Virus record (IMG/VR): IMGVR_UViG_2854558644_000001
Origin: a virus
Taxonomy: Duplodnaviria; Heunggongvirae; Uroviricota; Caudoviricetes
Reading direction: 5' to 3' (one strand)
Length of the DNA: 64,000 nt
Below the pieces are notes generated by a model that saw only the letters and a program-made list of their open reading frames with translations, was not told the DNA's origin and did no database searches. The number at the start of each line of letters is the position of its first letter. Position 1 is the stretch's first letter. The translations under genes and the position numbers were made by a program. Shown piece after piece: positions 2,039-64,000 of the stretch.

Positions 2039-3223
2039 CTCGACTAGGCGAGTATAAACCGTGTCAAGCCTAGTGCGTTACCCACTCTTTGAGTGGGTAG
2101 GTCACAAAATCTACATCATCATTTTGTGATGGGTTCTCCATCATCAACCCTATTTTTGACTTACATTTTCGTCAAGATAGGGTTCTTTTTTACTCAACCC
2201 ATAAGTCAATAAAAATACATAACATTAAACGCAATACAAATAAAACCGTGATAAGCCGTAGAGGTACGACAGTTCTTCCCAAACGGTCTATTAAAGTCAC
2301 CCAAAATTTAAAGACGCAATGCATAAAGGTTACTGTATGTGTATTCTAGTGTGATTAACCTACACACGACATCAATACACTTACACAAAATACAACCTAG
2401 TTAGGAGGTGTGCGTTAATAAGTAGGTGACGATAGACTTCAGGTTTTGTGGACAAGTAGATGTTCTGCTCTAAACTATCAGCACAACACTACAAGAATAC
2501 ATATGATTGAACGGTCAAGGGTGTGGTTTGCGAGAACCATAAACGAGGAGATGTCGTATAGGGCTGACAAGGGTGTTACGGAGCACTCCCAAGTGGCTAG
2601 GTCAGCGAATATAAACTCTATATTCGGGAAAACTTGGTGAACAGCGCATGAAAAGTGGTGGCTGGTGGCAAGTACATAATACATAGTGTGTAAACACTAT
2701 CACATAGCATCTTGGTACAAATATAGTGAGTGATTGACACAATTCACTATCATAAAAATTAACAATGATTCGATAGCTCAGTATATAGTTAGCGACTGGC
2801 GTTTCGGTAAAACGATGAAAACTTATGCTTGGTTATTTGAAAAGTTGCTAGTGGAACAATACACAAGAATTAGTGGTAACACTAATGTTGAATGTATCTA
2901 TCTACATTCGTGTATGAGGTATGAGCAGTACAATCCCTGCCTATAAATCCTACTGTCTAGTGTAACTAGGTTGATAGTATATTCTGTAATCAGTTCGAGA
3001 ATAATGTCACTGATAAAACCGTATGTCTTGCAATCGGTTTGTATAAAACAGTGTAAGGTATTCGTAACAGTTGGAGCGAATTAAAATAATAAACTGTTGA
3101 CTGCATAAGGGTTAGTCACCTGATGATAAGTAATAAGTGAATATACCATTTAATGTTTGAGGTCTACCTAATAGGAAATAAGTGAATATATAACAGAGGA
3201 TGTGAGGGCTACTTATCTTATTT

Positions 3224-3297
3224 GTGCTTATATGTGGTGAATAATATAATGCTAACAACATTATACTTATCAGTAGGTTCGATTCCTACAAGCACAT
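3224..3297 (+). tRNA. tRNA-like element (degenerate D-arm), anticodon loop cuAACaa
   Basis: 74 nt: 7-bp acceptor TGTGCTT/AAGCACA, perfect T-arm GTAGG-TTCGATT-CCTAC, 5-7 bp anticodon stem TAATG/CATTA with loop CTAACAA; D-stem only 2-4 bp. Confidence 0.3.
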
Positions 3298-21476: not shown

Positions 21477-21491
21477 AGGATGGTGATAAAA

Positions 21492-22502
21492 ATGAAAGGT
21501 AGATTAGAGCATTCATTACAAATTGAAAAAAATATAAAAGAAATATTATCTACATTACCACAATATGTAACTGAATATTATTATGAGTTCAAATCAGGAA
21601 GGCAACCAACAGCATGTAGAGAATATATAAGAAAAATAGCAAAATTTTTATATTTTATTGATTCGAGTGATATTAGACATATTAAAGCTACAGAAGTAAC
21701 AAAGTTTGATATTACTCGTTTTTTGGATTCAATAGAATATATAACAGATAACAATGGAAATAAAAAACAATCTTCATTATCTTATAGGAAGTGTTATCAT
21801 AGTGTACTAAAAAGTTTTTTTGATTTCTTAATAGAGAATGATTATATAACTGAAAATCCTATGAATAAAATAAAAAGGGTTCGTGGAGAAGATTTTGTTA
21901 ATAGAAAATTCTTAGACGAAGATGATTTAAAAGAAGTACTATTGGCTGTAGAATGTGGAGCAGGAAATAGAAGGTCAGTTGCTATGCAATATAAATGGAA
22001 ATCGAGAGACAGAGCAATTATGATGCTATTTATGCAAACTGGAATACGTGAAACAGCATTAAGCGAAATAAATATTGAAGATATCGACTTTGAGAATCAT
22101 TCTATTAAAAGTGTTATAGAGAAAGGACATAAAGAAAAAACATTTTCTATGAGTTCTCAATTAGAAAATGCAGTCTCAGAATGGATAAGTGATCGAAAAA
22201 GAATTATAGATAAAAATGAAGATGCATTATTCATTTCAAAATCAAAAACTCGTATGACACAAAGATCATTGTCGGATATTGTAATAAAATACACAAAGGA
22301 AGCTCTTGGATATTCGGTAACGCCCCATAAGTTAAGAGCATCATTTGCTAATATTATGTTGGAAAAGACAGATGAAAATATATATGTGGTTCAGCAGTTA
22401 TTAGGACATGCTAGAACAGAAACAACAAAAATATATTTGAAAAATAATTTAAATCAGTATAATGATATGGCTGCTGATATAATTGCTAAATCTATTTTTT
22501 AA
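21492..22502 (+). CDS. tyrosine recombinase / phage integrase family protein
   Basis: C-terminal HKLRASFA...LLGHARTETTKIYL (R-H-R-Y catalytic signature). Confidence 0.7.
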   Translation: MKGRLEHSLQIEKNIKEILSTLPQYVTEYYYEFKSGRQPTACREYIRKIAKFLYFIDSSDIRHIKATEVTKFDITRFLDSIEYITDNNGNKKQSSLSYRKCYHSVLKSFFDFLIENDYITENPMNKIKRVRGEDFVNRKFLDEDDLKEVLLAVECGAGNRRSVAMQYKWKSRDRAIMMLFMQTGIRETALSEINIEDIDFENHSIKSVIEKGHKEKTFSMSSQLENAVSEWISDRKRIIDKNEDALFISKSKTRMTQRSLSDIVIKYTKEALGYSVTPHKLRASFANIMLEKTDENIYVVQQLLGHARTETTKIYLKNNLNQYNDMAADIIAKSIF

Positions 22503-24606: not shown

Positions 24607-25407
24607 ATGGCGAGAAAGAAAGTAAATAAAGAATTAACCATAGAAGAACAGTTACAGAAAGAAAGAGAAAATGGATTAAGTTTTATTAAAGATGAAGTGT
24701 TACATCTGAATGAACCAACTTATAGATTTGAAGTAGGAGATAAGGTAAAATATGGTGCATTAAAAGACTGTACAGTAAAAGAAGTGTTATATGATGGAAA
24801 GGTATACGGATTACATTGTATTTCTACTGAAGAAAATTATGGGAATCCTTATGATAGAGAAGTATATAGAGTTGCTGAATGGACTAGCGTTAGACCGCTT
24901 ACTAATGGGGATTCAAGGTTTAGTAAAAATCAGGATGTAAAAATCAATTTTATCAATTCAATGATTGAGTCTCTTATCCATAAATATTATGCATTTGGAG
25001 TAGATATGAATCCTGAATATCAGAGAGGATATGTATGGGAGTTAGAAGATAAACAGTTGCTTATAGACAGTATTTTTAACAATATTGATATAGGTAAATT
25101 TGCTTTTATTCATTTGGATGATAAGAAATGGACTGAGACGGGTAATGGATATGAAATACTTGATGGTAAGCAGAGATTAAGCACAATTATTGATTTTTAC
25201 GAGAATAGATTTCCATATAACGGAGTTTATTACAATGACTTATCGGCTAAAGATAAGAATGTTTTCTTAAACCATCATATTGTACAAGGGGAAGTAAGAG
25301 AAGCAGATAGAAGGGCAGTATTAAAATATTTCTTAATGCTCAATAGAACTGGAAAGTCAATGGATCAGTCACACCTTGATAAAGTTGAGAAAATGTTAGA
25401 AGAATAA
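24607..25407 (+). CDS. DUF262 (ParB-like nuclease superfamily, GmrSD N-domain-like) protein
   Basis: LDGKQRLSTI matches DGQQR signature of DUF262. Confidence 0.55.
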   Translation: MARKKVNKELTIEEQLQKERENGLSFIKDEVLHLNEPTYRFEVGDKVKYGALKDCTVKEVLYDGKVYGLHCISTEENYGNPYDREVYRVAEWTSVRPLTNGDSRFSKNQDVKINFINSMIESLIHKYYAFGVDMNPEYQRGYVWELEDKQLLIDSIFNNIDIGKFAFIHLDDKKWTETGNGYEILDGKQRLSTIIDFYENRFPYNGVYYNDLSAKDKNVFLNHHIVQGEVREADRRAVLKYFLMLNRTGKSMDQSHLDKVEKMLEE

Positions 25408-25514: not shown

Positions 25515-25820
25515 TTGAGTAGATATAAGAATGGAAATCCAAAACATGCAAGCAGATTCATATGTATGAAATGTATGAATGAAAATATGTTAGCCAGTGG
25601 AATTCAGAGACAGAGACAAAGAGAACGAAAACATATTAAAGATTTGTATTGTTTGAAGTGCGGAGAGGTAACGAAGTGTATCGAAGTAAGATTTTGTGAT
25701 TCATATGAAGAAATTTTTGAGGCTGCAAAGATAAAAAGAGAGAATTATTACATAGACGAATATGAAAGTGAGGTTGATGAATATGTGTTACAAAATAGAA
25801 GTACAAAACAAAAATGCTGA
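25515..25820 (+). CDS. zinc-ribbon protein (TTG start)
   Basis: CMKCMNEN...CLKCGE; SD GAGGTGA 7 nt upstream of TTG. Confidence 0.45.
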   Translation: MSRYKNGNPKHASRFICMKCMNENMLASGIQRQRQRERKHIKDLYCLKCGEVTKCIEVRFCDSYEEIFEAAKIKRENYYIDEYESEVDEYVLQNRSTKQKC

Positions 25821-26763
25821 AAAGCTTAATAGGAAGTTGGATGAGTTAAATTTTCCTATATATATGAGAAAATATTTCACTGTTAAAATTGAAAGTAAAG
25901 CAGGTGCTTTAAATTATCTTGGAGTTATTGTAGATTTGCTCAATTGGTTTATTGAAGAGAAACTTATTGATAAAACAAATATTTCAGATATTGAGCCATC
26001 AGATTTTACTGACATTATGGCAGAAGATATCACGTTATATTTAAAGACTAAAGAACAGAATGGAATGTCACCTACGACATTAGAAACTAGAAAACATATA
26101 ATAAGTAGTTTTTGGGATTATATGAGTAGAGTGAAGGGAACTGAAATTAAAGATGGATTCTTTAAAGATGTAACTTATAAAGGGATTCCATCTGGAAACA
26201 AGTTAACTAAAAAACTTCCAACAGAAAAGCAACTTAATGATATGGAAGAAAAAATAATGTGGAAAAAGGATATTTCAGTAAGAAATAGAAATATTGCTAT
26301 TTTTCGAGTATTAAGAGGAACTGGAATAAGAGAATCTGAACTTGCTGGTTTGGATTTATCTAATTTGCATTTAGATGAAGAAATGCCTTATATTACTATT
26401 CTTGGTAAAGGTGTGTACAGAGAAATGCAAAATAGAATGGTATATCTTAGCGGATCTGCTTTAAAAGCTATAAGAGAGTGGTTAGAATACAGAAGCACAT
26501 TAAGTAACATTATTGATACAGAAGCTGTGTTTGTAAATAAAAATGGAACTCGTACAACAGAAAGAAATATCAAACAGATATTTGAGAATTATGGAAATGG
26601 TATAACACCACATATGATGCGTCATTATTATGCTAGTATAATGAACAGAAATGGAAATCTTGCATTTGTACAGCAGCAGTTAGGACATAGTAATGTAAAT
26701 ACAACAGTTAATAATTATGCAAATGGTGCAGTGGGGATGAAAGATGTGTTAAACAATATGTAA
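25777..26763 (+). CDS. tyrosine recombinase / phage integrase family protein
   Basis: HMMRHYYAS...LGHSNVNTTVNNY catalytic signature; overlaps upstream gene by ~40 nt. Confidence 0.7.
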   Translation: MNMCYKIEVQNKNAEKLNRKLDELNFPIYMRKYFTVKIESKAGALNYLGVIVDLLNWFIEEKLIDKTNISDIEPSDFTDIMAEDITLYLKTKEQNGMSPTTLETRKHIISSFWDYMSRVKGTEIKDGFFKDVTYKGIPSGNKLTKKLPTEKQLNDMEEKIMWKKDISVRNRNIAIFRVLRGTGIRESELAGLDLSNLHLDEEMPYITILGKGVYREMQNRMVYLSGSALKAIREWLEYRSTLSNIIDTEAVFVNKNGTRTTERNIKQIFENYGNGITPHMMRHYYASIMNRNGNLAFVQQQLGHSNVNTTVNNYANGAVGMKDVLNNM

Positions 26764-29615: not shown

Positions 29616-31052
29616 ATGACAATGGTGGGAAGAGACAAAGTTAAAAAAGATCAGATGATGTTAGGAACATTACTTAATCAGTTTAAAAGAGGTCAGATTA
29701 ATAAGAATCATCCTTTGCAGAGAAAGCCTGATCAATGGTCAGATGAGGCAAAGTCAGGACTTGCTGCCACTATAATCAAAGGAGAGGATATTGATTCCAT
29801 TAAAATATGTGAGCAGATTGTAAGCTCGACAGAGTTCATTCTTTGGCTTATTGATGGATTGCAGAGATTAACTGTTCTTGAATCATTTAAGAATAATGCT
29901 TTTGAAATTAAGAAGAGTCTTGAAATGCCAATTATGTACTATCAAGGAGTTGATGAGAATGGAAAAGTTGGAGTTATTAAATATGATCTTAGAGGTAAAA
30001 AATACAAAGATTTACCAGATGAATTAAAGGAAAAATTCGATAGTTATGCTGTTGATATAGTCAAACATCTTGATTGTACAGATGAAGAAATAGCCTATCA
30101 TATTGCAAGATATAACAGACAGACAAGTATGAATGTAAATCAGAAAAATATTTTGGTTGCTTGGAAGATAGCACCTGAGATAAAAAAACTCGTCAGCAAT
30201 CGTTTCTTTATGGATTGTGGAAATTATAATCCAAAAGAAGATACAAAGGAAGTATTTAACAGAATTGTGTGTGAATCTATTATGACTATGTTTCATCTTG
30301 ATAACTGGAAGAAATCAAAACAAATGAGTTTGTATCTTAATGAAAATGCAACGAAAGATGAATTTGAGGTATTTGAGAATGAACTCAATAGGTTGTATGA
30401 GATTACTGATCAAGACACAGTAGGTAAATTGTTTAATTCAAAAAATTCATTTATATGGTTCGCTGCTTTTCATACATTTACACAGTTTGGAATTGAAGAT
30501 ATTAAATTTATTGATTTTCTTGAAGAGTTTCAGAAAACATTACATAGCAAGACATTTGTAGAATATGAGAATAAGAGTTTCGATACTTATGATGATGGTA
30601 AGGGAACTAAAGATAAGAAAGTTGTTAAGGCAAAACTTAACATGCTCGAACAGCTTATGAAGGAATATTTACATATTACAGAAGAAACTAATTCAGAAAC
30701 AGAGAATAATATAAATGAGTCTGATACAAAGTCGTGTGAATCAGATTCAACGCTTGAATTTATTCAGAATAATGTTTCAAAAGATGTATCAAATGAAGAT
30801 ATTGAAGAATATCAGGATTTTATGGATTCATATGTAAACATTGATTCTGAATTATACAAGCAGTGTTCTATAGCATTAATGGCTTTAACTGCTTATGCTT
30901 ACAAATGCGATAGAGATGTTGAATTAGGAAAATGGATTGAAAATTGTCAGTCAAGAAAGTGGCAGAATCTCAGTCCTTCGCAGGAAGTCAATTTCAAATA
31001 TATGAAGAGAAGTTTTGATAATTTCGTCAATGCAAATGGAGGAGCTGCTTAA
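29616..31052 (+). CDS. DUF262 domain protein with long C-terminal extension
   Basis: LIDGLQRLTVL matches DGQQR motif of DUF262. Confidence 0.55.
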   Translation: MTMVGRDKVKKDQMMLGTLLNQFKRGQINKNHPLQRKPDQWSDEAKSGLAATIIKGEDIDSIKICEQIVSSTEFILWLIDGLQRLTVLESFKNNAFEIKKSLEMPIMYYQGVDENGKVGVIKYDLRGKKYKDLPDELKEKFDSYAVDIVKHLDCTDEEIAYHIARYNRQTSMNVNQKNILVAWKIAPEIKKLVSNRFFMDCGNYNPKEDTKEVFNRIVCESIMTMFHLDNWKKSKQMSLYLNENATKDEFEVFENELNRLYEITDQDTVGKLFNSKNSFIWFAAFHTFTQFGIEDIKFIDFLEEFQKTLHSKTFVEYENKSFDTYDDGKGTKDKKVVKAKLNMLEQLMKEYLHITEETNSETENNINESDTKSCESDSTLEFIQNNVSKDVSNEDIEEYQDFMDSYVNIDSELYKQCSIALMALTAYAYKCDRDVELGKWIENCQSRKWQNLSPSQEVNFKYMKRSFDNFVNANGGAA

Positions 31053-32488: not shown

Positions 32489-32561
32489 TGGGATGTGGTG
32501 AAGCGGTCAACACATCAGATTTTGATTCTGACATTCGTGGGTTCGAATCCCACCATCCTAG
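32489..32561 (+). tRNA. tRNA-Gln (anticodon UUG)
   Basis: cloverleaf: acceptor TGGGATG/CATCCTA, D-loop AAGCGGTCAA, anticodon stem TCAGA/TCTGA loop TTTTGAT, T-arm GTGGG-TTCGAAT-CCCAC. Confidence 0.85.
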
Positions 32562-32565
32562 CTGT

Positions 32566-32638
32566 GTGCCATTAGCTCAATAGGTAGAGCACTTGACTTT
32601 TAATCAAGATGTTGAGGGTTCAAGTCCCTTATGGCACA
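32566..32638 (+). tRNA. tRNA-Lys (anticodon UUU)
   Basis: acceptor GTGCCAT/ATGGCAC, D-arm GCTC-AATAGGTA-GAGC, anticodon stem CTTGA/TCAAG loop CTTTTAA, T-arm GAGGG-TTCAAGT-CCCTT. Confidence 0.9.
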
Positions 32639-38452: not shown

Positions 38453-39961
38453 TTGACAGAGAATAAAGAAAAAAATAATTATTGTGAGTTAAGTGTAATT
38501 GAACTTTGCAGTGGCATTGGAGCACAGATGAAGGGTATTGATAATACTCATCTATTTAATGCAAATATGATTGCAACAGCAGATTTAGATAAAGAAGTCG
38601 TGGTTAGTTATGCTGCAATTCATTGTGGTTTGACTAATGAAATGATTGAAAACTATGAAGATTATCCAAGCAAAGAAGAAATGGTAAAACAGCTTACAGA
38701 TAAGAGACTTGGATATGATTTTAAGAAAGATGTTCTGTATGATTGGGAGAAACTTTCACGAAAGAAGGACAAAACGAAAGGTATTGAGAAATATTGGTTA
38801 GCAGACCATATTTCACATAATCTTGGCGATATGATGCAGATTGAGTCACTGCCATATAGTGATTTACTTACATACTCGACTCCATGTACAGATCTTTCCA
38901 TTGCTGGTAAGCAAGAAGGATTAAAGTGGACATGTCATGATTGTGGTTGTGAATATGATCCATCAGAATTAGATGTAGATACTCGTTATACTTGCCCTAA
39001 TTGTGGCAGCCACAATATTAAATCAACTCGTTCAGGTTTATTGTATGAAGTTGAGAGACTTCTTGTAAAAGCAAAAGAGAATAATACATTACCAAAGTAT
39101 TTGCTTATGGAGAATGTAGATGCTCTTGTATCAAAGAAGTATATTGACAGTTTTAAGGATTGGTTGATTCGACTTGATAACTTGGGATATAACTCATATT
39201 ATCAGACAATCAATGCAAAGAATACTGGTATTCCACAGAATCGTAATAGAATCTTCTGTATCTCTATTCGTAAGGATATTGATACCAAGTCATTTGAATT
39301 TCCACAGCCTTTTGATACAGGAATCAGATTAAAGGATTTATTAGAAACAGATAGCAGTGTTCTGGAGAAATATTTCTTATCTGATGAAGTACAAAAAAGA
39401 CTTCAGATAACAGATCCAAAATTTGAAAAGAATGTAGTAGGAACAACAATTGGACAAAATTGTACCAGGTTAGGTAACAGAGATTTAGTTTATCAGCAGG
39501 ATTCAGTAATGGGTGCTTTAGTGGCAACTGATTATAAACAACCAAAACAGATTTTTGCCAATTCAAACGAACCAATACATATTGCTGATTTATGCAGCGA
39601 AAAGTTTCAGAGAATGCATGAGCAGTCTCGCAGAGTATATAGCGAAGATGGAATTGCACCAGCTATGCATACTTGCGGTGGTGGTAATACAGAACCAAAG
39701 GTTGAGAGAGATAATTTAAAAGTCGTAAGAAAGCTTACACCAAAAGAGTGTCATAGGCTCATGGGATTCAATGATATTGATTATGAGAATTGTAAAGCAG
39801 TTGGAATGTCTGATACTCAGGGATATAAACAAAGCGGTAACAGTATAGTGACAACTTGCATCTCTTTGTTGATTGAGCATTTATATAAGGCTCAGTATGA
39901 TAATACATATATTTGTACAGATGAGAAGATGGTAAATTTTCATCAGCCACAAGTGGATTAA
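38453..39961 (+). CDS. DNA (cytosine-5)-methyltransferase with zinc-ribbon insertion
   Basis: motif I LCSGIGAQ, motif IV TPCTDLSIAGK, motif VI LLMENVDAL, motif VIII GIPQNRNRIF, TRD-end RRVYSEDGIAPAMHTCGGG, IX RKLTPKECHRLMGF, X GNSIVTT; starts at TTG (first ATG would delete motif I). Confidence 0.8.
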   Translation: MTENKEKNNYCELSVIELCSGIGAQMKGIDNTHLFNANMIATADLDKEVVVSYAAIHCGLTNEMIENYEDYPSKEEMVKQLTDKRLGYDFKKDVLYDWEKLSRKKDKTKGIEKYWLADHISHNLGDMMQIESLPYSDLLTYSTPCTDLSIAGKQEGLKWTCHDCGCEYDPSELDVDTRYTCPNCGSHNIKSTRSGLLYEVERLLVKAKENNTLPKYLLMENVDALVSKKYIDSFKDWLIRLDNLGYNSYYQTINAKNTGIPQNRNRIFCISIRKDIDTKSFEFPQPFDTGIRLKDLLETDSSVLEKYFLSDEVQKRLQITDPKFEKNVVGTTIGQNCTRLGNRDLVYQQDSVMGALVATDYKQPKQIFANSNEPIHIADLCSEKFQRMHEQSRRVYSEDGIAPAMHTCGGGNTEPKVERDNLKVVRKLTPKECHRLMGFNDIDYENCKAVGMSDTQGYKQSGNSIVTTCISLLIEHLYKAQYDNTYICTDEKMVNFHQPQVD

Positions 39962-44327: not shown

Positions 44328-45071
44328 ATGTTAGAAATTAACAAAATATACAATGAAGATTGCCTTGAAGGTATGAAAAAGATTGATGATAAATCGGTCG
44401 ATGCGATTATTACGGATCTTCCTTATGGACAAACTTCACGAAATAAATGGGATTCAGTTATTCCATTTAAACCATTATGGGAACAGTATGAAAGAATCAT
44501 TAAAAACAATGGTGCAATTATTCTATTTGCGAATGGTATGTTTACTGCAGATTTAATGCAAAGCAATCGTAAGCTTTGGAAATATAATCTGATTTGGGAG
44601 AAAACACAGCCAACAGGATTTCTAAATGCTAAGAAAATGCCATTACGCTCACACGAAGATATCTGTATTTTCTATAAAAAACTTCCAACTTATAATCCAC
44701 AGAAAACAACTGGACATCCAAGAAAAGTTAGCAAAGCAGAACATAAGACTAACTGTAAAGAGACTACTGATTATGGAGAACATGGTCTTACTACTTATGA
44801 TAGTACAGAAAGATACCCTAAGTCGGTATGGACATTTGCAAAGGATATCCAAAAGTCGGCACTTCATCCGACACAAAAGCCTGTAGCACTGATTGAAGAG
44901 TTGATCAAGACCTACACAAATCCAGGAGATTTAGTTCTTGATTCATGTGCAGGAAGTTGTACAACTGCAGTTGCAGCTTTGAATACAGGTAGAAATTACA
45001 TATGTTTTGAGAAGGACAAGGATATTTTTGAGGTTGGAAGTAAGAGAGTGAGAGAATACATAAATGAGTAA
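44328..45071 (+). CDS. beta-class DNA methyltransferase (N6-adenine or N4-cytosine; N6_N4_Mtase family)
   Basis: motif IV AIITDLPYG N-terminal and motif I VLDSCAGSCTTAVAA C-terminal. Confidence 0.75.
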   Translation: MLEINKIYNEDCLEGMKKIDDKSVDAIITDLPYGQTSRNKWDSVIPFKPLWEQYERIIKNNGAIILFANGMFTADLMQSNRKLWKYNLIWEKTQPTGFLNAKKMPLRSHEDICIFYKKLPTYNPQKTTGHPRKVSKAEHKTNCKETTDYGEHGLTTYDSTERYPKSVWTFAKDIQKSALHPTQKPVALIEELIKTYTNPGDLVLDSCAGSCTTAVAALNTGRNYICFEKDKDIFEVGSKRVREYINE

Positions 45072-48482: not shown

Positions 48483-49370
48483 TTGAAACAAAAATATGAA
48501 TGTATTGTATCACCCATATTTTATATGGGTAATAAGAAAAAACTTATTCAAAGGGGATTAATAGAACTATTCCCAAAGGACATTGATTGCTTTATTGATG
48601 TTTTTGCAGGTAGTTCAGTAGTCTCTATGAATACAAAAGCTAATAAATATTTCATTAATGATAATGATAAAAACTTAAAGCAGTTATATAAGTTATTCAA
48701 AATATATAATTCTGATACAATTATTAATCATATCATTTCCAGAATTGATGAATATGGATTAGCGCAAGAAAGAACAAGTCATAAAGTATTTAATGATGAC
48801 AGAAAAGATAGATATAAAAATTCTTATTATGAATTTAGGAATTATTATAACACTCATAAAAATGCTCTTGATTTCTACACGCTTATGTTTTATTCATTTT
48901 CACAACAGTTTAGGTTCAATGATAAAGGTGAATTTAATATGCCATGTGGTAACGATTGTTTTTCTGATAAAAATCAAAAATATATTCGTAATGGTTGCAC
49001 ATTTTATCATTCTGATAATGTCCATATATTCAGTATGGACTTTCGCTCAATTCCAATAGATTCGATTACAACTAAAGATTTTGTATATTTAGATCCTCCA
49101 TATTTTAATACCACTGCTACATACAACGAGGCAGGTGGTTGGACTGAAAATGACGAAAATGATTTATATGATTTTTGTGAAAGACTTTCTGAGAATAATA
49201 TAAAATGGGGAATGTCTAATGTGTTTGAGAATAAAGGAATTATAAATCAAAAGTTGGTTGATTGGTGTGATAAGAACAATTTAAATGTATATACATTTGA
49301 TAAATTTACATATATGGCTTGTGGTAAAGGTAATTCAAATGCTAAAGAAGTATTTATAACAAACTATTAG
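48483..49370 (+). CDS. Dam-like (D12 class) N6-adenine DNA methyltransferase
   Basis: N-terminal SPIFYMGNKKKLI (FLKWAGGK-like), FAGSSVV motif I, YLDPPYF motif IV; TTG start needed to retain N-terminal motif. Confidence 0.75.
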   Translation: MKQKYECIVSPIFYMGNKKKLIQRGLIELFPKDIDCFIDVFAGSSVVSMNTKANKYFINDNDKNLKQLYKLFKIYNSDTIINHIISRIDEYGLAQERTSHKVFNDDRKDRYKNSYYEFRNYYNTHKNALDFYTLMFYSFSQQFRFNDKGEFNMPCGNDCFSDKNQKYIRNGCTFYHSDNVHIFSMDFRSIPIDSITTKDFVYLDPPYFNTTATYNEAGGWTENDENDLYDFCERLSENNIKWGMSNVFENKGIINQKLVDWCDKNNLNVYTFDKFTYMACGKGNSNAKEVFITNY

Positions 49371-51789: not shown

Positions 51790-53109
51790 ATGTATTGTGC
51801 TTATATCACAACATTAAAAGGATTAAGAAAACATAGTAACGCTGATAGATTACAGTGTGTAGAAGTATTTGGACAGAATGTAATTGTAGATTTGAGTTAT
51901 CAGGAAGGACAGAAAGTAGTCTTCTTCCCATCTGATGGTCAGTTGTCACTTGAATACGCAACAGATAATAACCTTGTTAGGAAGAAAGACGAGAATGGAA
52001 ACAATATTGGTGGCTACATGGATGCTGAAAAAAGAAACGTAACTGCCATTAGACTTAGAGGCGAGAAGTCAGAAGGTCTTGTGTTGCCAATTGAGACACT
52101 TGCTAAGTATACAGATATTTCAAAATTAAAAGATGGCGATCAGATTACAGTTCTTGGTGGTCATGAAATTTGTCAGAAATATATCCCAAGAGGAAAGAGT
52201 CGTTCAAAAAACAATGGAAACAATTCAAATAAGAAGAACAAGTTTCAGAAAGAGACAATATCATATCCATTTTTTGAAGAACATAAGGATACTGCACAGC
52301 TTGCATATAATATGTCAGCATTTAAGCCAGGAGATACGATTTATATTACTCGTAAGCTCCACGGAACATCAGCTCGTACTATGAAGACTGTCAAGGTTAC
52401 AAAGAAGAATAGTAAGCTGAGAAAGTTTTTACATATAAAGCCAAAGGTTATAAGAGAAGTTTCTGTTGTATCTGGTAGCAGAAGAGTTGTGTTAAAGGAT
52501 ATGACAAAGAATGATGGATATTATGCTGATAATGGATTTAGAAAGAAGTACCACGATTTATTAAAAGATAAGCTTCCTGAAGGGGCTGAAATTTTCTATG
52601 AAATTGTTGGTTATGTAAATGAAACAACACCTATTATGGGTTCTGTGTCTAATAAAGGTGTTAAAGAAAAGAAATTTACAAAGAAGTTTGGCGACACTAC
52701 AACATTCTCATATGGTTGTGAACCAGGTGAAAATGAGATGTATGTATATCGAATGACAATGACAACAGCAGATGGAACAGTTGTTGAAGTACCTTGGGAG
52801 ACTGTAGAAGTATGGTGTGACAAGTTAGGTGTTAAGCATGTACCTGATTTAGAGAAGTTTATCTATACTACACCAGAAGATTTGAAAGAAAGAGTAAATA
52901 AATATCTTGATGGTATGCCAGCAGATGAAATCGGCAAGACACATGTTGCCGAAGGTATAGTTGTTCGTATTGATAACAGAGCAACATTCACGGCTTATAA
53001 GGATAAGGTGTTTGAATTTAAGGTAATTGAGGGAATCGCCAAAGATACATCTGATGTACCTGATATGGAAGAAGCTGAAGAATTATTTGAGGAGACATTA
53101 AATGAATAA
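51790..53109 (+). CDS. ATP-dependent RNA ligase (Rnl family, KxHG motif I)
   Basis: YITRKLHGTSAR nucleotidyltransferase motif I like T4 Rnl2 KIHGTN; adjacent to polynucleotide kinase. Confidence 0.55.
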   Translation: MYCAYITTLKGLRKHSNADRLQCVEVFGQNVIVDLSYQEGQKVVFFPSDGQLSLEYATDNNLVRKKDENGNNIGGYMDAEKRNVTAIRLRGEKSEGLVLPIETLAKYTDISKLKDGDQITVLGGHEICQKYIPRGKSRSKNNGNNSNKKNKFQKETISYPFFEEHKDTAQLAYNMSAFKPGDTIYITRKLHGTSARTMKTVKVTKKNSKLRKFLHIKPKVIREVSVVSGSRRVVLKDMTKNDGYYADNGFRKKYHDLLKDKLPEGAEIFYEIVGYVNETTPIMGSVSNKGVKEKKFTKKFGDTTTFSYGCEPGENEMYVYRMTMTTADGTVVEVPWETVEVWCDKLGVKHVPDLEKFIYTTPEDLKERVNKYLDGMPADEIGKTHVAEGIVVRIDNRATFTAYKDKVFEFKVIEGIAKDTSDVPDMEEAEELFEETLNE

Positions 53110-53992
53110 ACCTACATTATGGGTTATGTGTGGTTTGAGTGGTAGTGGCAAATCAACCATTGCCACTCAGATTGCTAATGAAAATCCAAATACAATAATC
53201 GTATCATCAGATGCAATTCGTGAAGAATTAACTGGTAATTACGAAGACCAAGAACATAATGAAGAAGTGTTTAAAATTTTTCACAATAGAATCCGTAAGA
53301 ATTTGGAGAATAAAAAGAATGTAATTGCAGATGCAACTAATCTGACTATGAAATCTCGTAGAGCAATTATGATGAAAGTAAATGGTTTAAATGTTAGAAA
53401 AGTGTGTGTGATTATTCCAAAGCCATTTGAACAGTGTAAGATTGATAATAAAAATCGTGAGCATCCTGTTCCTAATGAAGTATTGGATAAACAGATTAGA
53501 AGATTTCAGATCCCATTTTACGAAGAAAAATTTGATGAGATTCAGATAAATGTATTTCATAAAGAGAATCGTTTAACTCTTGGAGAAATGTTTTCTATGA
53601 TGGAAGGGTTTGATCAGAAAAACCCTCATCATACTATGGATTTATATAATCACTCATTTCATACATATGAGTTATTTAGTAGTAAATGCTATCCAGCAAA
53701 ATATAATATAGCTGCATTATTACACGATTTTGGAAAAATGTATTGTCAAACATTTGATGAGAATGGCATAGCTCATTACTATGAACATCATGCAATCGGT
53801 TCTTATTTAATTTTAGAGAACCTATCAGGTATATTTTACGAAAATATTGGTGACATATGTTTTCTTATCAACTATCATATGATGCCTTTTAGTTGGGATA
53901 CTGATAAAGCAAAGCAGCGTTGGAAAGAAAGATTTGGAGAATATAAATATAAGATGCTTTTAGATTTTAACGAATGTGATAGAGCGAGGTAA
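53102..53992 (+). CDS. polynucleotide kinase (P-loop) fused to HD-domain phosphohydrolase
   Basis: Walker A GLSGSGKST; HD motifs HHTMDLYNH...LLHDFGK. Confidence 0.65.
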   Translation: MNKPTLWVMCGLSGSGKSTIATQIANENPNTIIVSSDAIREELTGNYEDQEHNEEVFKIFHNRIRKNLENKKNVIADATNLTMKSRRAIMMKVNGLNVRKVCVIIPKPFEQCKIDNKNREHPVPNEVLDKQIRRFQIPFYEEKFDEIQINVFHKENRLTLGEMFSMMEGFDQKNPHHTMDLYNHSFHTYELFSSKCYPAKYNIAALLHDFGKMYCQTFDENGIAHYYEHHAIGSYLILENLSGIFYENIGDICFLINYHMMPFSWDTDKAKQRWKERFGEYKYKMLLDFNECDRAR

Positions 53993-57775: not shown

Positions 57776-58414
57776 ATGAGTAGCAGTGGCATTTATGGAA
57801 TAAGAAAAGATTATACAGGAGAAGAGATATTTGAATATAAAAACTCATGGTGGTTTTCTCCTATAATTTGGAGTGTCTTACCAGATAAATATATTCATGA
57901 TTACATTCAAACACCATTTGGTTTTAAAAAGGGAATTATTGGAATGGATGGGAACGATGTATGGACAAGAACTAACAAATCCATTAATGAGTGCGATAAC
58001 ACACCTGATAGGGTTTGTTGGGAGATGTCGAATCAACAGATTTTTCATACATCTGACAAACAAATTATTTCAGATTCTATTATGCAATTCTTAAAACAAA
58101 ATGATACTTATGATGTATCAGAAGAAGATAATGTTCCCGTTTTAAAAAGAGAACATATCATTGAGAGATTTACAGAAATAGCAAATGATATTTTATCAAT
58201 TGATGAAAATGAATTTCCATATTTTGTATTTAAAAATACAACAGTGGATGATGGTGTTGAGAGATGGTTTGAAAAATATGACGAGGAATCTGATGAATAT
58301 GTTTCGTGTGCAATGTCAGAAAATACAGATGATTTTTATGCAGAATTTGTATTTTTCAAAGATGGAAAAATTAACAAATTTGTAAGTAACAAAGATTATC
58401 AGTTTGAATCATAG
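57776..58414 (+). CDS. hypothetical protein
   Basis: ORF+SD AAAGGAGAACAA. Confidence 0.55.
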   Translation: MSSSGIYGIRKDYTGEEIFEYKNSWWFSPIIWSVLPDKYIHDYIQTPFGFKKGIIGMDGNDVWTRTNKSINECDNTPDRVCWEMSNQQIFHTSDKQIISDSIMQFLKQNDTYDVSEEDNVPVLKREHIIERFTEIANDILSIDENEFPYFVFKNTTVDDGVERWFEKYDEESDEYVSCAMSENTDDFYAEFVFFKDGKINKFVSNKDYQFES

Positions 58415-58438
58415 AAAGAAATTTTTCTTTCTTGGGAG

Positions 58439-58630
58439 GTGATTAATATATTTCGTATAGAGAAAACTGAAGTTGTAAATGGATGTGATTGTTGGGGAAG
58501 ACCAGAATATGATGATGTATATGAAGTTTATTGTAATGATGAATTTGTATGTCGTATGTCAAGTGATCCAACAATATTAGTTGATAAGATAAATGATGTT
58601 TTAAATAGTTATAGGAGAATAATTATATAG
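58439..58630 (+). CDS. hypothetical protein (non-ATG start)
   Basis: frame opens at GTG inside SD GGGAGGTG; in-frame ATA 8 nt after SD; CDCWG motif. Confidence 0.45.
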   Translation: MINIFRIEKTEVVNGCDCWGRPEYDDVYEVYCNDEFVCRMSSDPTILVDKINDVLNSYRRIII

Positions 58631-58677
58631 GACAGCTAATTAATAAAACAGTATTATGAAAAATCGGAGGAAAAAGA

Positions 58678-58881
58678 ATGAAAAGAGGAGATATTATTGA
58701 ATTAATTGAGGATACAACATTTTATAAAAAAGGTAAGAAGGCTTATTTTATTGGTAGATCAAATTTTAATCCTAATAAAATTGAAATTGTTTGGGTTGGT
58801 GAAGAACAGGCTTATAAAGATGGCGATATAGACGAATTTCCAGCTAGATTGTTTAAGCAGGTTGAACATGGCGATAGGTGA
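58678..58881 (+). CDS. hypothetical protein
   Basis: ORF+SD CGGAGGAAAAAG. Confidence 0.55.
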   Translation: MKRGDIIELIEDTTFYKKGKKAYFIGRSNFNPNKIEIVWVGEEQAYKDGDIDEFPARLFKQVEHGDR

Positions 58882-59158
58882 TGGAAGAAGAACATATTCA
58901 GATAGTACATTAAAGTCTATGACAAAAGATGAGCTGATTGATATTATTCGCTGCTTAGAAAGTAATCTTAGAAATGCACATGAGACAAATGATATTCAGT
59001 ATGAGAATTGTAAGAGGTTGCTAAGTGAAAATGGGATAATTCAAGGTGGATATAAGAAGAAAATTGATGAACAGACAGAGGCTTGGATTAAAGCAGGATT
59101 GACATTATCAGAAGCAGACAAAGAAGAATTGATGAGAATGTCGCAGTTAAGAGAATAA
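58868..59158 (+). CDS. hypothetical protein
   Basis: ORF overlapping upstream gene by 14 nt. Confidence 0.45.
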   Translation: MAIGDGRRTYSDSTLKSMTKDELIDIIRCLESNLRNAHETNDIQYENCKRLLSENGIIQGGYKKKIDEQTEAWIKAGLTLSEADKEELMRMSQLRE

Positions 59159-59200
59159 GTAATTGTAAACAATAATTTTATATCATAGGAGGAAATAAAT

Positions 59201-59818
59201 ATGATGAACAATTTTTTAAATGGCATGTTTGGTAAGGTAGGAAGTGGAATGTGTAGACTTTCTATGAATGGTGGAATTGCAGTTAAGACAAATGGTGGTT
59301 ATAAGACATATAACATCAAGACTGGCAAGCTCACAAACTGTAGTAACTTTGTATTTGATATTGGAGAGGAATTCTTCTTTATTATTCCAACTAATAAGGT
59401 AGAGAAGGGTGACATCATTCTTGTAAATGGTAAGCCAAGATGTGTTATTGAAGCCGATAAGACAAAGATTACAGTAATCAATTATGAGGACTCAACAATT
59501 GAAACCGTGCTTCCTGAAAGACATGTATTTATGGGCAATACATATTTTTATGGAAAGATTGTTTCGATGTTTGGAAGTGATGTTATTAAAGGTAAGAAAG
59601 GTACAAATAATATCTTTAAGTACATGATGCTTTCTCAGATGATGAAAAGTGATAATGGTTCTGCTGGCATGATGAATGGCAATGGTGGAATGAGTTCTAT
59701 GTTACCACTTATGATGATGGGTGGAAATATGGGTGATATGTTTGACGGAATGTTCGACTTTGATATGAGTAGCAATGATGACGATGATACAGAAGTAGAT
59801 GAAGAGGAGGAGGCATAA
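59201..59818 (+). CDS. hypothetical protein with Gly/Met-rich and poly-acidic C-terminus
   Basis: ORF+SD TAGGAGGAAATAA. Confidence 0.55.
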   Translation: MMNNFLNGMFGKVGSGMCRLSMNGGIAVKTNGGYKTYNIKTGKLTNCSNFVFDIGEEFFFIIPTNKVEKGDIILVNGKPRCVIEADKTKITVINYEDSTIETVLPERHVFMGNTYFYGKIVSMFGSDVIKGKKGTNNIFKYMMLSQMMKSDNGSAGMMNGNGGMSSMLPLMMMGGNMGDMFDGMFDFDMSSNDDDDTEVDEEEEA

Positions 59819-59819
59819 T

Positions 59820-60698
59820 ATGGGATGCGGTTCATGGACAAGAGATAGTTATGTAAGTTATTCAACAACAAAGGGTATGAGTGTTTCAACGGATGGTATG
59901 ATTAGAGGTTCTTATTCTAATCAGGACATGTTTAAGGCAAGAAATATTGATTCTGCACTTGATCCTAAGAATGTTATTAGAGAGTGTTGCGATACAGAGG
60001 AACATCCAAACACAATTCCTGTTATTCTTGCACTTGATGTAACTGGTTCTATGGGACAGGCTGCCGTTGAAGTGGCAAAGAAGTTAAATGTAATTATGAC
60101 TAAGTTATATGAAAAGGTTACAGATGTTGAGTTCCTTATCATGGGTATTGGTGATTTAGCTTGTGATAGCTATCCAATTCAGGCTTCACAGTTTGAGTCA
60201 GATATTCGTATTGCTGAACAGCTTGACAAGATTTATTTTGAATTTGGCGGTGGTGGAAATAGTTATGAATCCTACACAGCAGCATGGTATTTCGGTTCTC
60301 GTCACACAAAGCTTGATTGCTTAAACCGTGGAAGAAAAGGAATTATTATTACAATGGGTGATGAGCAGTTAAATCCATATCTTCCATTTAAGAGTAGAGG
60401 TCATGGCTTATCAGAGGTGACAGGTGATAACCTTCAGTCTGATGTAGAGACTAAGGATTTATACGAAGAGGCTTCTCAGAAGTTTAACATTTATCATTTA
60501 GATGTAAATCACGGTCACAGATGGGATGAAGAAGAAATTGAGAAGTCCTACAAGAAGTATCTTGATGATACACACTTTAGAAGAGTAACTATGGATAGTA
60601 TTACAAATGAGATTGTAGATATTATTGTTAGTGAAGCAGAGAATAATGTTACAGATACAGTTACTACACCTTCTAACTCAGAAGGAATTACTTGGTAG
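59820..60698 (+). CDS. von Willebrand factor A (vWA) domain protein
   Basis: MIDAS-like LALDVTGSMG and downstream ITMGDEQ; SD GAGGAGGAGG. Confidence 0.65.
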   Translation: MGCGSWTRDSYVSYSTTKGMSVSTDGMIRGSYSNQDMFKARNIDSALDPKNVIRECCDTEEHPNTIPVILALDVTGSMGQAAVEVAKKLNVIMTKLYEKVTDVEFLIMGIGDLACDSYPIQASQFESDIRIAEQLDKIYFEFGGGGNSYESYTAAWYFGSRHTKLDCLNRGRKGIIITMGDEQLNPYLPFKSRGHGLSEVTGDNLQSDVETKDLYEEASQKFNIYHLDVNHGHRWDEEEIEKSYKKYLDDTHFRRVTMDSITNEIVDIIVSEAENNVTDTVTTPSNSEGITW

Positions 60699-60715
60699 GA
60701 TAGGAGATTTAAGAG

Positions 60716-61807
60716 ATGAAAGACATTAAGATTGTAATAGGTGCTAACTTTGGAGATTGTGGAAAGGGATTAATGACAGATTATTTCTCACAGAAACCTA
60801 ATAGTATTGTTGTTTGTTCAAATGGTGGTGCTCAGAGAGGACATACCGTAACAACGCCTGATGGAATCAGACATGTCTTTCATCATTTTGGATCTGGAAC
60901 ATTCAATCATGCAAGTACATATTTATCTGAGGATTTTATTGTTAATCCAATTATCTTTAAGCAGGAATATGATGAATTGATGAAATTAGGATATATTACG
61001 AATGTTTATATCAATCAAAATTGTATGTTGACTACACCTTTTGATATGATGGCAAATCAGATTATAGAAGAAAATCGTGGAAAAAATAAACATGGTAGTT
61101 GTGGCTTGGGAATTTTTGAAACTATCAAAAGATATAAAGCTGGCATAACTGATGTAGATAATCATATCAGGGAATACTACTTAGAACAATTTGAAAGAGA
61201 GAATATTATATTAACAGATGAATGGTCAAAAATATTCCTTGATAATGGTATATTTGAACACTTTTTAGATGATTGGGATTTTATGAATAATCACTCATTG
61301 GCTATATCAGATAATTATTTCTTAAATCAATTTGACAATATTGTATTTGAAGCTGCACAAGGTTTATTGCTTGATCAGAACAACACAGAATATTTTCCAC
61401 ATCTAACACCGTCTAATACAGGTATTAAAAATCCCAAGAGAATAATTGAAAATGTTGAATGGAATGATGAGATAAATATTGAAACTTGTTATGTATCTCG
61501 TACTTATTTAACAAGACATGGTGCTGGTAAATTCCCATCTGAATGTAATAAGAGATTTATCAACGAATATATGTTTGATAAAACAAATGTGCCAAATCCA
61601 TTCCAGGATACATTGAGATATGGAACACTGGATTTAGGAGAATTATATAGTAGATGCTCTAATGATATAGGAAACTTTGGAGATAAAAAATCAATCACCA
61701 TTACACATTGTAATGAATATGATTGGGATAATGATAAATTGATTGAGTTATTCAAGGATTGGAATATTTATTACTCAGATGGTGAAACACATAATGATGT
61801 GAACTGA
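60716..61807 (+). CDS. adenylosuccinate synthetase family protein (PurA/PurZ-like, short form)
   Basis: N-terminal VIGANFGDCGKGLMTDYF (GDEGKGK-like P-loop) and NGGAQRGHTV...HVFHHFGSG (QGGHNAGHT...LIPSG-like); 363 aa. Confidence 0.7.
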   Translation: MKDIKIVIGANFGDCGKGLMTDYFSQKPNSIVVCSNGGAQRGHTVTTPDGIRHVFHHFGSGTFNHASTYLSEDFIVNPIIFKQEYDELMKLGYITNVYINQNCMLTTPFDMMANQIIEENRGKNKHGSCGLGIFETIKRYKAGITDVDNHIREYYLEQFERENIILTDEWSKIFLDNGIFEHFLDDWDFMNNHSLAISDNYFLNQFDNIVFEAAQGLLLDQNNTEYFPHLTPSNTGIKNPKRIIENVEWNDEINIETCYVSRTYLTRHGAGKFPSECNKRFINEYMFDKTNVPNPFQDTLRYGTLDLGELYSRCSNDIGNFGDKKSITITHCNEYDWDNDKLIELFKDWNIYYSDGETHNDVN

Positions 61808-61849
61808 GAACAAGAAAGATTCGTTCTTTTGGAAATATGGAGGTAAAAA

Positions 61850-62410
61850 ATGGAGAAATTTTATATTGTAACAAATGAAGATTTTTTAAAAGGGTTACAT
61901 CGTGATGAAGTAATAGAAAAAAACAGAAGAGAATTTATCAAAGATTTTTTCAATCGCATAGGAATAAGTGGAAATCATTATTATATGCGTGGAGATGGTA
62001 ATGTTAATGTTGCGTTTAAGGAAAACACAAAAAGTAATATTGAATTGTATATTGATGATGTGCAGGAAAATAGTGAAAAATTTGGTAATCAATTAAACAA
62101 ACCTAAAATGTTTGAAGGTCAAAGTATGAGAAAGTTTAAAAAAGGTTGCAAAATATTAAAGCAATTTCAAGATGAATGTATTAAAAAGGAGATAGTTATT
62201 AATGCTTATCCTTTGAGGTGTGGAGACTACTTCGAAGAAACGGAAATGGGTGGCTATTCAAGAACAAGTTTTGAATACAATGGAAAACAATACTTACGTA
62301 TGAGTACTAATCGCTATAATTCATTAACTCCTTATGAAAATGGTTTTGAAGAGATAAAAGGCAGTGAGTTTTATAAAGCATTTGAAGAATTTGAATCAAA
62401 AAATAAGTAA
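61850..62410 (+). CDS. hypothetical protein
   Basis: ORF+SD TGGAGGTAAAAA. Confidence 0.55.
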   Translation: MEKFYIVTNEDFLKGLHRDEVIEKNRREFIKDFFNRIGISGNHYYMRGDGNVNVAFKENTKSNIELYIDDVQENSEKFGNQLNKPKMFEGQSMRKFKKGCKILKQFQDECIKKEIVINAYPLRCGDYFEETEMGGYSRTSFEYNGKQYLRMSTNRYNSLTPYENGFEEIKGSEFYKAFEEFESKNK

Positions 62411-62437
62411 TATCGGTTTCGTGTGGAGGTGAAACGA

Positions 62438-62674
62438 ATGATAACACCATCAGTAATGCAAGGATTAACAAATGAAAATACAATGCTGTCAAGTGTTTCT
62501 ATAGAAGATTTAGAAGAGTATAAGAAAAATGCTTGTAAAATTCTTAGAAGTCAGACGCAGTGTGCTACTGCAAAAATCGTAGAAGAATTGATTGATCAGG
62601 AAATTATGAATAGAAGAATTATTGAAGAGTGGAATAAAATCTATGAAAAATTTCCTGAATATGTTGGAATGTAG
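62438..62674 (+). CDS. hypothetical protein
   Basis: ORF+SD GTGGAGGTGAAA. Confidence 0.5.
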   Translation: MITPSVMQGLTNENTMLSSVSIEDLEEYKKNACKILRSQTQCATAKIVEELIDQEIMNRRIIEEWNKIYEKFPEYVGM

Positions 62675-62677
62675 GAG

Positions 62678-63115
62678 GTGATACCAATAGAATTAGAGAA
62701 TAATTCAAAACAGATTGAAGAAAATCTTAAAACTATACTTACATTAGAATATATGGGAATTCATATTGAAGACACAAAAGAGCAAGATTTTAAGCAGTTA
62801 TATTATTTTTCTGTACCAGAAAAATCAACAATAGAAACAAATGATTTTCTAAATGATCAAATCAAGACATCAGACGGATTAATACAGGTTGCAAAAGATT
62901 TTTTAGCTGTGATGATTATTAGTTCATGTAAATCTGAATTTGATGATAGTGAAGAGGACGAAAAATTTTACGAAGATGTGGAAAATAATATTTCAGAATA
63001 TGCTTTATTCTTTGCAAGGGTTAGACAAGGTGAAATATGGAATAAAGAAATGGGCAAGGTTGCTGTTAATAAGGTATTAGGAAAGCTCCAAAATCAGTTA
63101 TATAAACAGGTTTAA
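62678..63115 (+). CDS. hypothetical acidic protein (non-ATG start)
   Basis: frame opens at GTG inside SD AGGAGGTG; in-frame ATA 8 nt after SD. Confidence 0.45.
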   Translation: MIPIELENNSKQIEENLKTILTLEYMGIHIEDTKEQDFKQLYYFSVPEKSTIETNDFLNDQIKTSDGLIQVAKDFLAVMIISSCKSEFDDSEEDEKFYEDVENNISEYALFFARVRQGEIWNKEMGKVAVNKVLGKLQNQLYKQV

Positions 63116-63130
63116 AAGGAGGATGAATAA

Positions 63131-63505
63131 ATGACTTGTAAGTACCCAATAACTAGCAGAAGTTATAAATTTTGTATAGGCTGTAGCGATATAGATTGTT
63201 GTAAAGATGCAGTTACTCCAATCATTTCTATGCCAAAATTTCAGTCACCAAAGAATGTTATTCCGTCTGCATCAGAAGCAAATAAAATGACAAATAATGC
63301 AATTGATAATTGCACTACACAGCAATTAGCAGAGTTATCAAAATTGATTAGAGATGCGATTGCAGATGGCAAATTTTCAATCAGTGAAGATGGTTGTTTA
63401 AAACTTGAAACACGAAAGAAATTAGAGGAATTTGGTTATAAAGTTGAAACTGGGAATCAATACAATGAATCGTATTACAGTATCAGTTGGAGAGAAACGA
63501 AATAA
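63131..63505 (+). CDS. hypothetical Cys-rich protein
   Basis: ORF+SD AAAGGAGGATGAATAA. Confidence 0.55.
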   Translation: MTCKYPITSRSYKFCIGCSDIDCCKDAVTPIISMPKFQSPKNVIPSASEANKMTNNAIDNCTTQQLAELSKLIRDAIADGKFSISEDGCLKLETRKKLEEFGYKVETGNQYNESYYSISWRETK

Positions 63506-63535
63506 ATTTCGATTTTATATGAGGAGGTAAAGATA

Positions 63536-63781
63536 ATGGCATATAAAAATACAAATTATAGAGAACAAATAGACAAAGAAGCATATCAGTATGGTGATTT
63601 AGCTGATTATGAATTTGATGATAGGGAAGAATTTATTCCCAAAAGTGTTGTTATTCAAATAATTGACGAAATTGAATCTGATATAAATGATATCAATCAC
63701 AAGTTAGAACATATAAATGGTTTAACAGAAGTGGATGAAATTAAAAAACAAGTTTCTGAATTAAGTACGAAATTATATTAG
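63536..63781 (+). CDS. hypothetical protein
   Basis: ORF+SD GAGGAGG. Confidence 0.55.
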   Translation: MAYKNTNYREQIDKEAYQYGDLADYEFDDREEFIPKSVVIQIIDEIESDINDINHKLEHINGLTEVDEIKKQVSELSTKLY

Positions 63782-63820
63782 TAAGAGAGAATATAAAAGT
63801 AAAGAAAGAGAGGTACATAT

Positions 63821-64000
63821 ATGCCAGTACATGATGATTTAGGCGTTAGGATGAAGACATTTTATGAGCAGATTCCAAAGACAAAACTGATGAGAAGGTG
63901 TCCAGTTGCTATCAGAATTGATGGAAAAGCGTTCCACACATTCACAAGAGGATTTCAGAAGCCTTTTGATGAAGTTTTGATTAAATCAATGCAGGAAACA
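63821..64000 (+). CDS. Thg1-like protein (tRNA-His guanylyltransferase-like 3'-5' polymerase), N-terminal part; continues past window
   Basis: VRMKTFYEQ...RRCPVAIRIDGKAFHTFTRGFQKPFDEVLIKSMQET matches Thg1 N-terminal RLDGRNFHRF...KPND block. Confidence 0.6.
   Translation, partial: MPVHDDLGVRMKTFYEQIPKTKLMRRCPVAIRIDGKAFHTFTRGFQKPFDEVLIKSMQET

Follow-up and report, generated by a model that had tools for sequence, protein, structure and literature searches.

The 64,000-nt stretch of viral DNA analysed in this work (the window) ends inside an open reading frame, whose visible part had been annotated from the letters alone as the N-terminus of a 3'-5' nucleotidyltransferase of the Thg1/TLP family. 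A frame cut off in this way raises the question whether it is the beginning of an intact gene or the remnant of a decayed one and, if the gene is intact, to which branch of the family its product belongs and what it may do in a phage.

The truncated frame and the gene it begins

An ATG at 63821-63823 opens a frame of 60 codons that runs without a stop up to the window edge at 64000. The translation of 63821-64000 is MPVHDDLGVRMKTFYEQIPKTKLMRRCPVAIRIDGKAFHTFTRGFQKPFDEVLIKSMQET, which contains the string quoted in the first-pass annotation. Two features are found at this end of the window:

63807..63813 (+): Shine-Dalgarno-like AGAGAGG, 7 nt 5' of the ATG, read from the sequence; the same motif is carried by the relative L001
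63821..64000 (+): first 60 codons of a 284-aa bacterial-type TLP, assigned by the Pfam Thg1 match, the identical loci and the BtTLP mapping

Against the Pfam family PF04446 (Thg1) the window's 60 residues alone gave an E-value of 1.5e-11 and 44.8 bits, above the curated gathering score of 29.2 bits, with residues 10-60 aligned to profile positions 3-52 of 130. The match is far beyond chance, and the Thg1/TLP block claimed at the window edge is thereby borne out; the pattern cited in support of that claim (V.RLDGRNFHRF...KPND) corresponds to human THG1 at this place of the 3OTB alignment.

The remaining 224 codons lie past the window edge and were taken from near-identical public contigs, used as a proxy for intactness; the gene was read from L005:6286-7140. 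The upstream 81-aa ORF (63536-63781) is present in 660 blocks of the public assembly index, and eight of the loci that share it were fetched (L003-L010). In all eight, the 81-aa ORF is followed at an unchanged offset by a gene annotated as Thg1-family, and the DNA that corresponds to positions 63821-64000 of the window is 100% identical to it; three of them (L005, L009 and L010) are 99.98% identical to the last 6 kb (58001-64000). The ORF comprises 284 aa in these loci, with the exception of L004 (288 aa). Therefore, the frame continues to 284 aa (288 aa in L004) in every available copy of the allele, and the early termination just past the window that the first-pass annotation had allowed for does not occur in any of the eight. 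The exact 284-aa protein (P0241) corresponds to RefSeq WP_118370294.1 and is found on 215 contigs, one of them of 3.09 Mb, while a one-residue variant is the UniRef entry A0A8S5RHC0, named "tRNAHis guanylyltransferase, virus sp. ctiha2". The TLP is thus already known: the exact protein is so annotated in RefSeq and UniRef, and the family has a PHROG of its own. Judged by the near-identical contigs, the gene appears to be intact in the Lachnospira eligens prophage, and the value of the present result is one of confirmation, namely that the ORF cut off by the window edge belongs to a TLP that is both real and intact.

The opposite reading, according to which this genome's copy is a decayed remnant that encodes no functional enzyme, has two observations in its favor. 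The search with the window's 60 residues gave only products of 50-104 aa, some of them on contigs of 40-190 kb, and several relatives carry independent inactivating lesions:

L011-L016: 1-nt deletion at codon 63
L001, L002: 2-nt deletion at codon 76, directly before the QSDE motif
L113: TAG at codon 17
L154 (listed with L155): internal deletion with loss of aa 79-140
L156: N-terminal stub with 75 codons left
L043, L070: also among the relatives with a decayed TLP

The short products turned out to be contig-end fragments together with several independent decayed alleles. Some of the lesions are circulating alleles and not assembly errors, because they are common to contigs from several samples. 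An intron, a programmed frameshift and stop-codon recoding were considered and rejected, as the lesions have no common insertion, slippery site or consistent in-frame stop. A TLP ORF of at least 250 aa, complete within the locus, was found in 138 of the 153 fetched loci, and eight of the 15 exceptions had been fetched from truncated proteins; in searches with the full-length protein at most ~7 of 137 loci were broken or truncated. The gene is normally intact, but occasional decay is tolerated, and its loss in a minority of the relatives shows that the lysogen, at least, can do without it. For the copy studied here, however, decay is exceedingly improbable: with at most 98% identity, no broken allele reproduces the window's 60 residues exactly, each of the eight loci whose DNA is identical has an intact gene, the intact protein is found on the 215 contigs mentioned above, and broken loci are as infrequent as the full-length searches indicate.

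Subtype, active-site residues and variable segments

The full-length protein matches PF04446 with an E-value of 4.9e-30 (104.6 bits, profile positions 3-130 of 130), whereas its score against the Pfam family Thg1C (PF14413, fingers) is 22.2 bits, under the cut-off of 26.3. Since the C-terminal half aligns with BtTLP residues 126-240 (E-value 1.4e-27) despite the sub-cut-off Pfam score, a Thg1C domain is predicted here that has diverged from the Pfam model. None of the NCBIfam models for Thg1/TLP matches the full-length protein, and among the PHROGs the protein belongs to 4717, 'tRNA-His guanylyltransferase' (E-value 3.5e-89).

The closest solved relative is BtTLP, the crystallised Thg1-like protein of Bacillus thuringiensis (PDB 4KGK/4KGM; Hyde et al. 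2013, Rao et al. 2011), with an E-value of 4.8e-62 against the 4KGK sequence across both domains and 49% identity over 231 aligned positions. The archaeal MaTLP of Methanosarcina acetivorans (5AXK) follows with 2.1e-13, and the eukaryotic Thg1 proteins with 4.7e-12 to 3.1e-7. The region that reads DTHINNLYN in eukaryotic Thg1 is DASRNSIQM in the TLP (HINNLYN replaced by SRNSIQM), and the commonest variants of the family at this segment keep the same non-HINNLYN form. Because HINNLYN is absent and the match to BtTLP is far stronger than that to eukaryotic Thg1, the protein is assigned on sequence grounds to the bacterial-type TLPs and not to the bona fide eukaryotic Thg1 enzymes, in agreement with the initial naming as TLP rather than Thg1. 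With eukaryotic Thg1 (human 3OTB, Candida 3WBZ, yeast) it shares the palm catalytic core and the three carboxylates, but the similarity is weak and HINNLYN is missing; tRNA-His specificity and template independence would not be expected of it.

The residue roles established for BtTLP (Hyde et al. 2013, PMC3701042) were transferred to the TLP as follows:

BtTLP E12 = TLP E16, in the window: transfer step
BtTLP R28 = TLP R32, in the window: transfer step
BtTLP D30 (hTHG1 D29) = TLP D34, in the window: metal carboxylate
BtTLP H35 = TLP H39, in the window
BtTLP T38 = TLP T42, in the window
BtTLP K43 = TLP K47, in the window: activation step
BtTLP S74 = TLP S78, past the window: activation step
BtTLP D75 (hTHG1 D76) = TLP D79, past the window: carboxylate
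BtTLP E76 (hTHG1 E77) = TLP E80, past the window: carboxylate
BtTLP R131 = TLP R159, past the window: transfer step
BtTLP R147 = TLP R175, past the window: transfer step
BtTLP M158 = TLP M186, past the window

The Thg1 catalytic carboxylates, whose possible absence from the full-length protein had been raised at the outset, are all present, D34 within the window and D79 and E80 just past its edge. Among 120 distinct relatives (40-97% identity) the mapped functional residues are 93-100% conserved, with D34 kept in 119, D79 in 118 and E80 in all 120, and with K or R at position 47 in 117. The carboxylates and the residues of the activation site (K, S) and the transfer site (R, R, E) are identical between the TLP and BtTLP, and the two proteins also share the TLP-type motif WRQxDAS(K/R)NSI and the equivalent of M158. 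Unlike BtTLP, the window's protein is 39 aa longer, has a hypervariable insertion of ~25-30 aa that follows aa 117, where palm and fingers meet, and a β-hairpin (aa 231-257) that is longer and likewise hypervariable, and is encoded in a gut Lachnospiraceae prophage, with an activity that is predicted. An AlphaFold2 model built on a shallow alignment (22 sequences, 86-96% identity) had a mean pLDDT of 36.7 and was unusable; the putative palm fold is thus predicted solely from the ~49% identity to 4KGK.

Homologous TLPs are encoded in 139-157 GenBank phage records, most of them annotated as tRNA-His guanylyltransferase. PHROG 4717 includes, for instance, proteins of Fusobacterium phage Fnu1 and of the Bacillus phages G (gp378), Bcp1 and FADO. 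The best of these TLPs from isolated phages are 48% (Fnu1) and ~44% (Bacillus phages) identical to the window's protein; they comprise ~240-245 aa and lack its inserts.

The variability of the protein is confined to two segments, as can be seen from the comparison of pairwise identities:

aa 1-116 and 154-230 (core): mean pairwise identity 0.75-0.78
aa 117-153: mean pairwise identity 0.21, length range 24-64 aa
aa 231-257: mean pairwise identity 0.19, length range 5-38 aa

The first variable segment is located past the window (L005:6634-6744) and has no counterpart in the solved structures; proteins that share at least 90% core identity with the reference protein carry 39 variants of it. The genes of L004 (L004:6286-7152) and L005 are 100% identical at the DNA level except for nt ~345-480, where the identity drops to ~45%; this is a sharply bounded exchange of a cassette between the two loci. 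In the alignment the second variable segment corresponds to the β-hairpin with which MaTLP binds the tRNA elbow, a hairpin known to be poorly conserved (PMC4820378).

The prophage and its putative RNA-repair genes

The TLP gene belongs to a large, SPbeta-like integrated prophage (roughly 100-200 kb) of the gut bacterium L. eligens. The window is AT-rich (31.7% GC), and its ORFs of 150 aa or more lie almost without exception on the + strand. In relatives, the loci that flank the TLP contain the SPbeta-type replication genes YorF, YorH and YopX and the DNA polymerase III alpha subunit. Relatives are found on IMG/VR contigs, mostly of 90-200 kb among the matches listed, and in Lachnospiraceae genomes, e.g. 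those of Roseburia, Coprococcus, Blautia, Lacrimispora and Robinsoniella. With the final 2 kb of the window as query, megablast returned no match among GenBank phages, and the element has no close cultured relative.

Several further loci were noted in the window. Those at 21480-22502, 25762-26763, 24607-25407, 29616-31052, 38453-39961, 44328-45071 and 48483-49370 encode two tyrosine integrases, one GmrSD_N-domain protein together with a second match of this kind below the cut-off, and three DNA methyltransferases (C5, N6/N4 and Dam-like); such a dense concentration of accessory and anti-restriction genes is typical of temperate phages of large size. At 2038-2106 (+) there is a Pistol self-cleaving ribozyme (Rfam RF02679), with 60 bits against a gathering score of 34.5, an E-value of 2.1e-08 and a match to the full-length model. 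The ORF at 60716-61807 (+) encodes a short (363 aa) adenylosuccinate synthetase (AdSS) homologue (Pfam E-value 1.2e-34), which was assigned to PHROG 1211, '2-aminooxy adenylosuccinate synthetase' (E-value 1.3e-65). This label is the PurZ-type label of the 2-aminoadenine 'Z-genome' phages. The best PDB matches of the same protein are ordinary PurA enzymes (8.7e-17), and it may be either PurZ or PurA.

The first-pass annotation placed the TLP alongside a ligase/kinase module and tRNAs and argued that it extends the RNA-repair repertoire of the phage. The genes in question are:

51790..53109 (+): RNA ligase, 439 aa, ~10.7 kb upstream of the TLP
53102..53992 (+): P-loop polynucleotide-kinase-like protein with a C-terminal HD domain, 296 aa, overlapping the ligase stop
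32489..32561 (+): tRNA-Gln(UUG), ARAGORN; Rfam tRNA 64.8 bits; acceptor stem fully paired; no CCA encoded
32566..32638 (+): tRNA-Lys(UUU), ARAGORN; Rfam tRNA 76.5 bits; acceptor stem fully paired; no CCA encoded

The ligase was identified by Pfam RNA_ligase (PF09414, E-value 3.4e-10) and PHROG 968, 'RNA ligase' (E-value 4.3e-66), with a weak match to the PHA02142 OB-fold (20.7 bits, under the cut-off of 27); no solved structure was detectable for it by sequence. The kinase/HD protein matches Pfam AAA_33 (E-value 7e-27) and PHROG 505, 'polynucleotide kinase' (E-value 7.4e-25), with a marginal HD match (E-value 2.4e-4, 21.8 bits against a cut-off of 22), and its PDB matches are the kinase domain of Clostridium thermocellum Pnkp (4GP7, E-value 5.6e-10) and Pnkp1 (4XRP). 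As the kinase gene overlaps the stop of the ligase gene, the two likely constitute a two-gene module for end healing and sealing. Both genes are real, as the annotation had it; because they lie ~10 kb from the TLP, the link is one of co-residence and not of operon structure. Seven contigs are common to two IMG/VR lists made up of the best 80 matches each, and in L001 there is also a kinase within 10 kb.

The tRNA-Gln and tRNA-Lys genes are likewise genuine; the latter starts 4 nt after the former, and both are ~31 kb upstream of the TLP. The third tRNA called by ARAGORN, a tRNA-Val with the unusual anticodon AAC at 3223-3297 (+), did not reach the Rfam tRNA gathering score and lacks Rfam support; either a degenerate tRNA or a false call may be behind it. 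Editing of the phage's own tRNAs at the 5' end, as in mitochondria, was considered as a role of the TLP and rejected, because tRNA-Gln and tRNA-Lys, with their perfectly paired acceptor stems, need no 5' editing.

In bacteriophage T4, Pnkp and Rnl1 restore tRNA damaged by the anticodon nuclease PrrC. The window has an analogous pair of ligase and kinase/HD proteins and a tRNA-Lys(UUU), whereas T4 has no TLP, and in the window the TLP is linked to the module by co-residence in the genome alone. Neighborhoods that combine Thg1, PNK and RNA ligase, as well as a phage Thg1, were described by Anantharaman, Iyer and Aravind (2010; PMC2904730), who proposed RNA repair directed against host defences, and Thg1 was listed among the tRNA-repair enzymes of jumbo phages by Iyer et al. 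(2021; PMC7824862). An extension of the RNA-repair repertoire by the TLP would thus be a suggestion that the literature already contains rather than a demonstrated function.

Predicted activity and competing readings

The analysis shows which gene this is, that it is intact as judged by proxy, that its catalytic residues are present, to which subtype it belongs and in what genomic context it sits. We consider it highly probable that the window ends with the start of an intact 284-aa TLP which most likely serves as a tRNA 5'-end repair enzyme in the phage. The enzymatic activity is predicted from the ~49% identity to a characterised enzyme, and the tRNA substrate and the counter-damage role are predictions as well. 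[quoted passage not shown] MaTLP (PDB 5AXK-5AXN with tRNA; Kimura et al. 2016), which is distantly related but of the same fold family and serves as a mechanistic template, sits as a dimer on the acceptor stem and elbow of the tRNA and does not contact the anticodon; its flexible β-hairpin (R198-R215) acts as a ruler that gauges the length of the stem and terminates the reaction (PMC4820378). As the active site is unchanged, the TLP should act like these two enzymes, and the likeliest activity is the templated 3'-5' refilling of 5'-truncated tRNAs. By homology with BtTLP and MaTLP it would be a two-metal-ion, palm-domain 3'-5' nucleotidyltransferase that uses ATP or GTP to activate the 5'-monophosphate of a tRNA missing at least one 5' nucleotide. 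The missing nucleotides would then be added singly, with the 3' strand of the acceptor stem as the Watson-Crick template, and addition would end once the flexible β-hairpin no longer reaches the tRNA elbow. The enzyme would act in this capacity during infection or induction; the Pnkp-type kinase/HD enzyme of the phage could supply the 5'-phosphate, and the kinase/HD enzyme, the RNA ligase and the tRNA genes may serve the same end as the TLP, i.e. to keep translation working in the face of tRNA-damaging nucleases. Several points count against this reading: the elbow-contacting R215 of MaTLP aligns with E257 of the TLP, the Thg1C score is under the Pfam cut-off, the ligase and kinase genes are not adjacent to the TLP, the gene has decayed in some relatives, and its intactness is read from public contigs. 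In the literature searched we found no experimental (biochemical or genetic) study of any phage TLP.

All database names of the protein read tRNA-His guanylyltransferase, and taken literally they would make it a maturation enzyme that adds G-1 to phage or host tRNA-His in which G-1 is not encoded. BtTLP does catalyse a templated N-1 addition to tRNA-His, and it can replace yeast thg1 to a weak degree in complementation (PMC3061083); MaTLP possesses a second, anticodon-dependent binding mode for tRNA-His (PMC4820378). Against this stand the replacement of HINNLYN by SRNSIQM, a likeness to BtTLP that exceeds that to Thg1 by ~50 orders of magnitude in E-value, the fact that G-1 is genome-encoded in most bacteria (PMC3061083), and the finding of no tRNA-His in the window, nor in the 3-10 kb around the gene in any of 54 relatives, so that we regard this role as very unlikely; the name probably mis-states the activity, which would be general repair of tRNA 5' ends. 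An active TLP might also work on something other than tRNA, either on the 5' ends of another small RNA or of phage transcripts, or by forming a 5'-App end that feeds the RNA ligase. RNA ligation via a 5'-App intermediate was proposed by Anantharaman et al. (PMC2904730), some Dictyostelium TLPs are reported to have distinct biological functions (PMC5041481), and both the lineage-specific hypervariable insert at aa 117-153 and the lost equivalent of MaTLP R215 could reflect an altered recognition of the substrate. The closest characterised enzymes nevertheless all use tRNA, the core residues of the activation and transfer sites are unchanged, and the β-hairpin segment is still at the elbow-binding position, which together leave a non-tRNA substrate distinctly unlikely.

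An abundant gut prophage with a cassette-swapping TLP seems a reasonable system in which to ask what damages the 5' ends of bacterial tRNAs, and why a repair polymerase is found in hundreds of large phages. We speculate that in this lineage the TLP may have become a counter-defence enzyme in an arms race. It lies at the edge of a variable accessory-gene slot, which in a close relative is occupied by the Thoeris anti-defence genes Tad2 and Tad4, and it has a recombining hypervariable cassette with dozens of unrelated variants, besides the second variable segment at the tRNA-elbow hairpin. On this reading, the choice of damaged tRNAs for repair could be tuned by the cassettes, or these could evade a sensor or inhibitor of the host. 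The reading is an unlikely one, which we keep open because of the cassette-swapping insert and the location beside the anti-defence gene slot, the only mildly novel thread of the present analysis. If it were true, the host should possess a nuclease, as yet undiscovered, that trims the 5' ends of tRNAs; we know of none with such an activity in this host.

The slot itself, between the AdSS-like gene and the TLP (61850-63781, +), is variable. In L001/L002 (L001:8566-9884) it contains a 202-aa ORF together with the Thoeris anti-defence protein Tad4 (PF25186) and a Tad2-like protein (PF11195). In the window it is occupied by five small ORFs with no Pfam match and one marginal PHROG match, which are candidate anti-defence genes.
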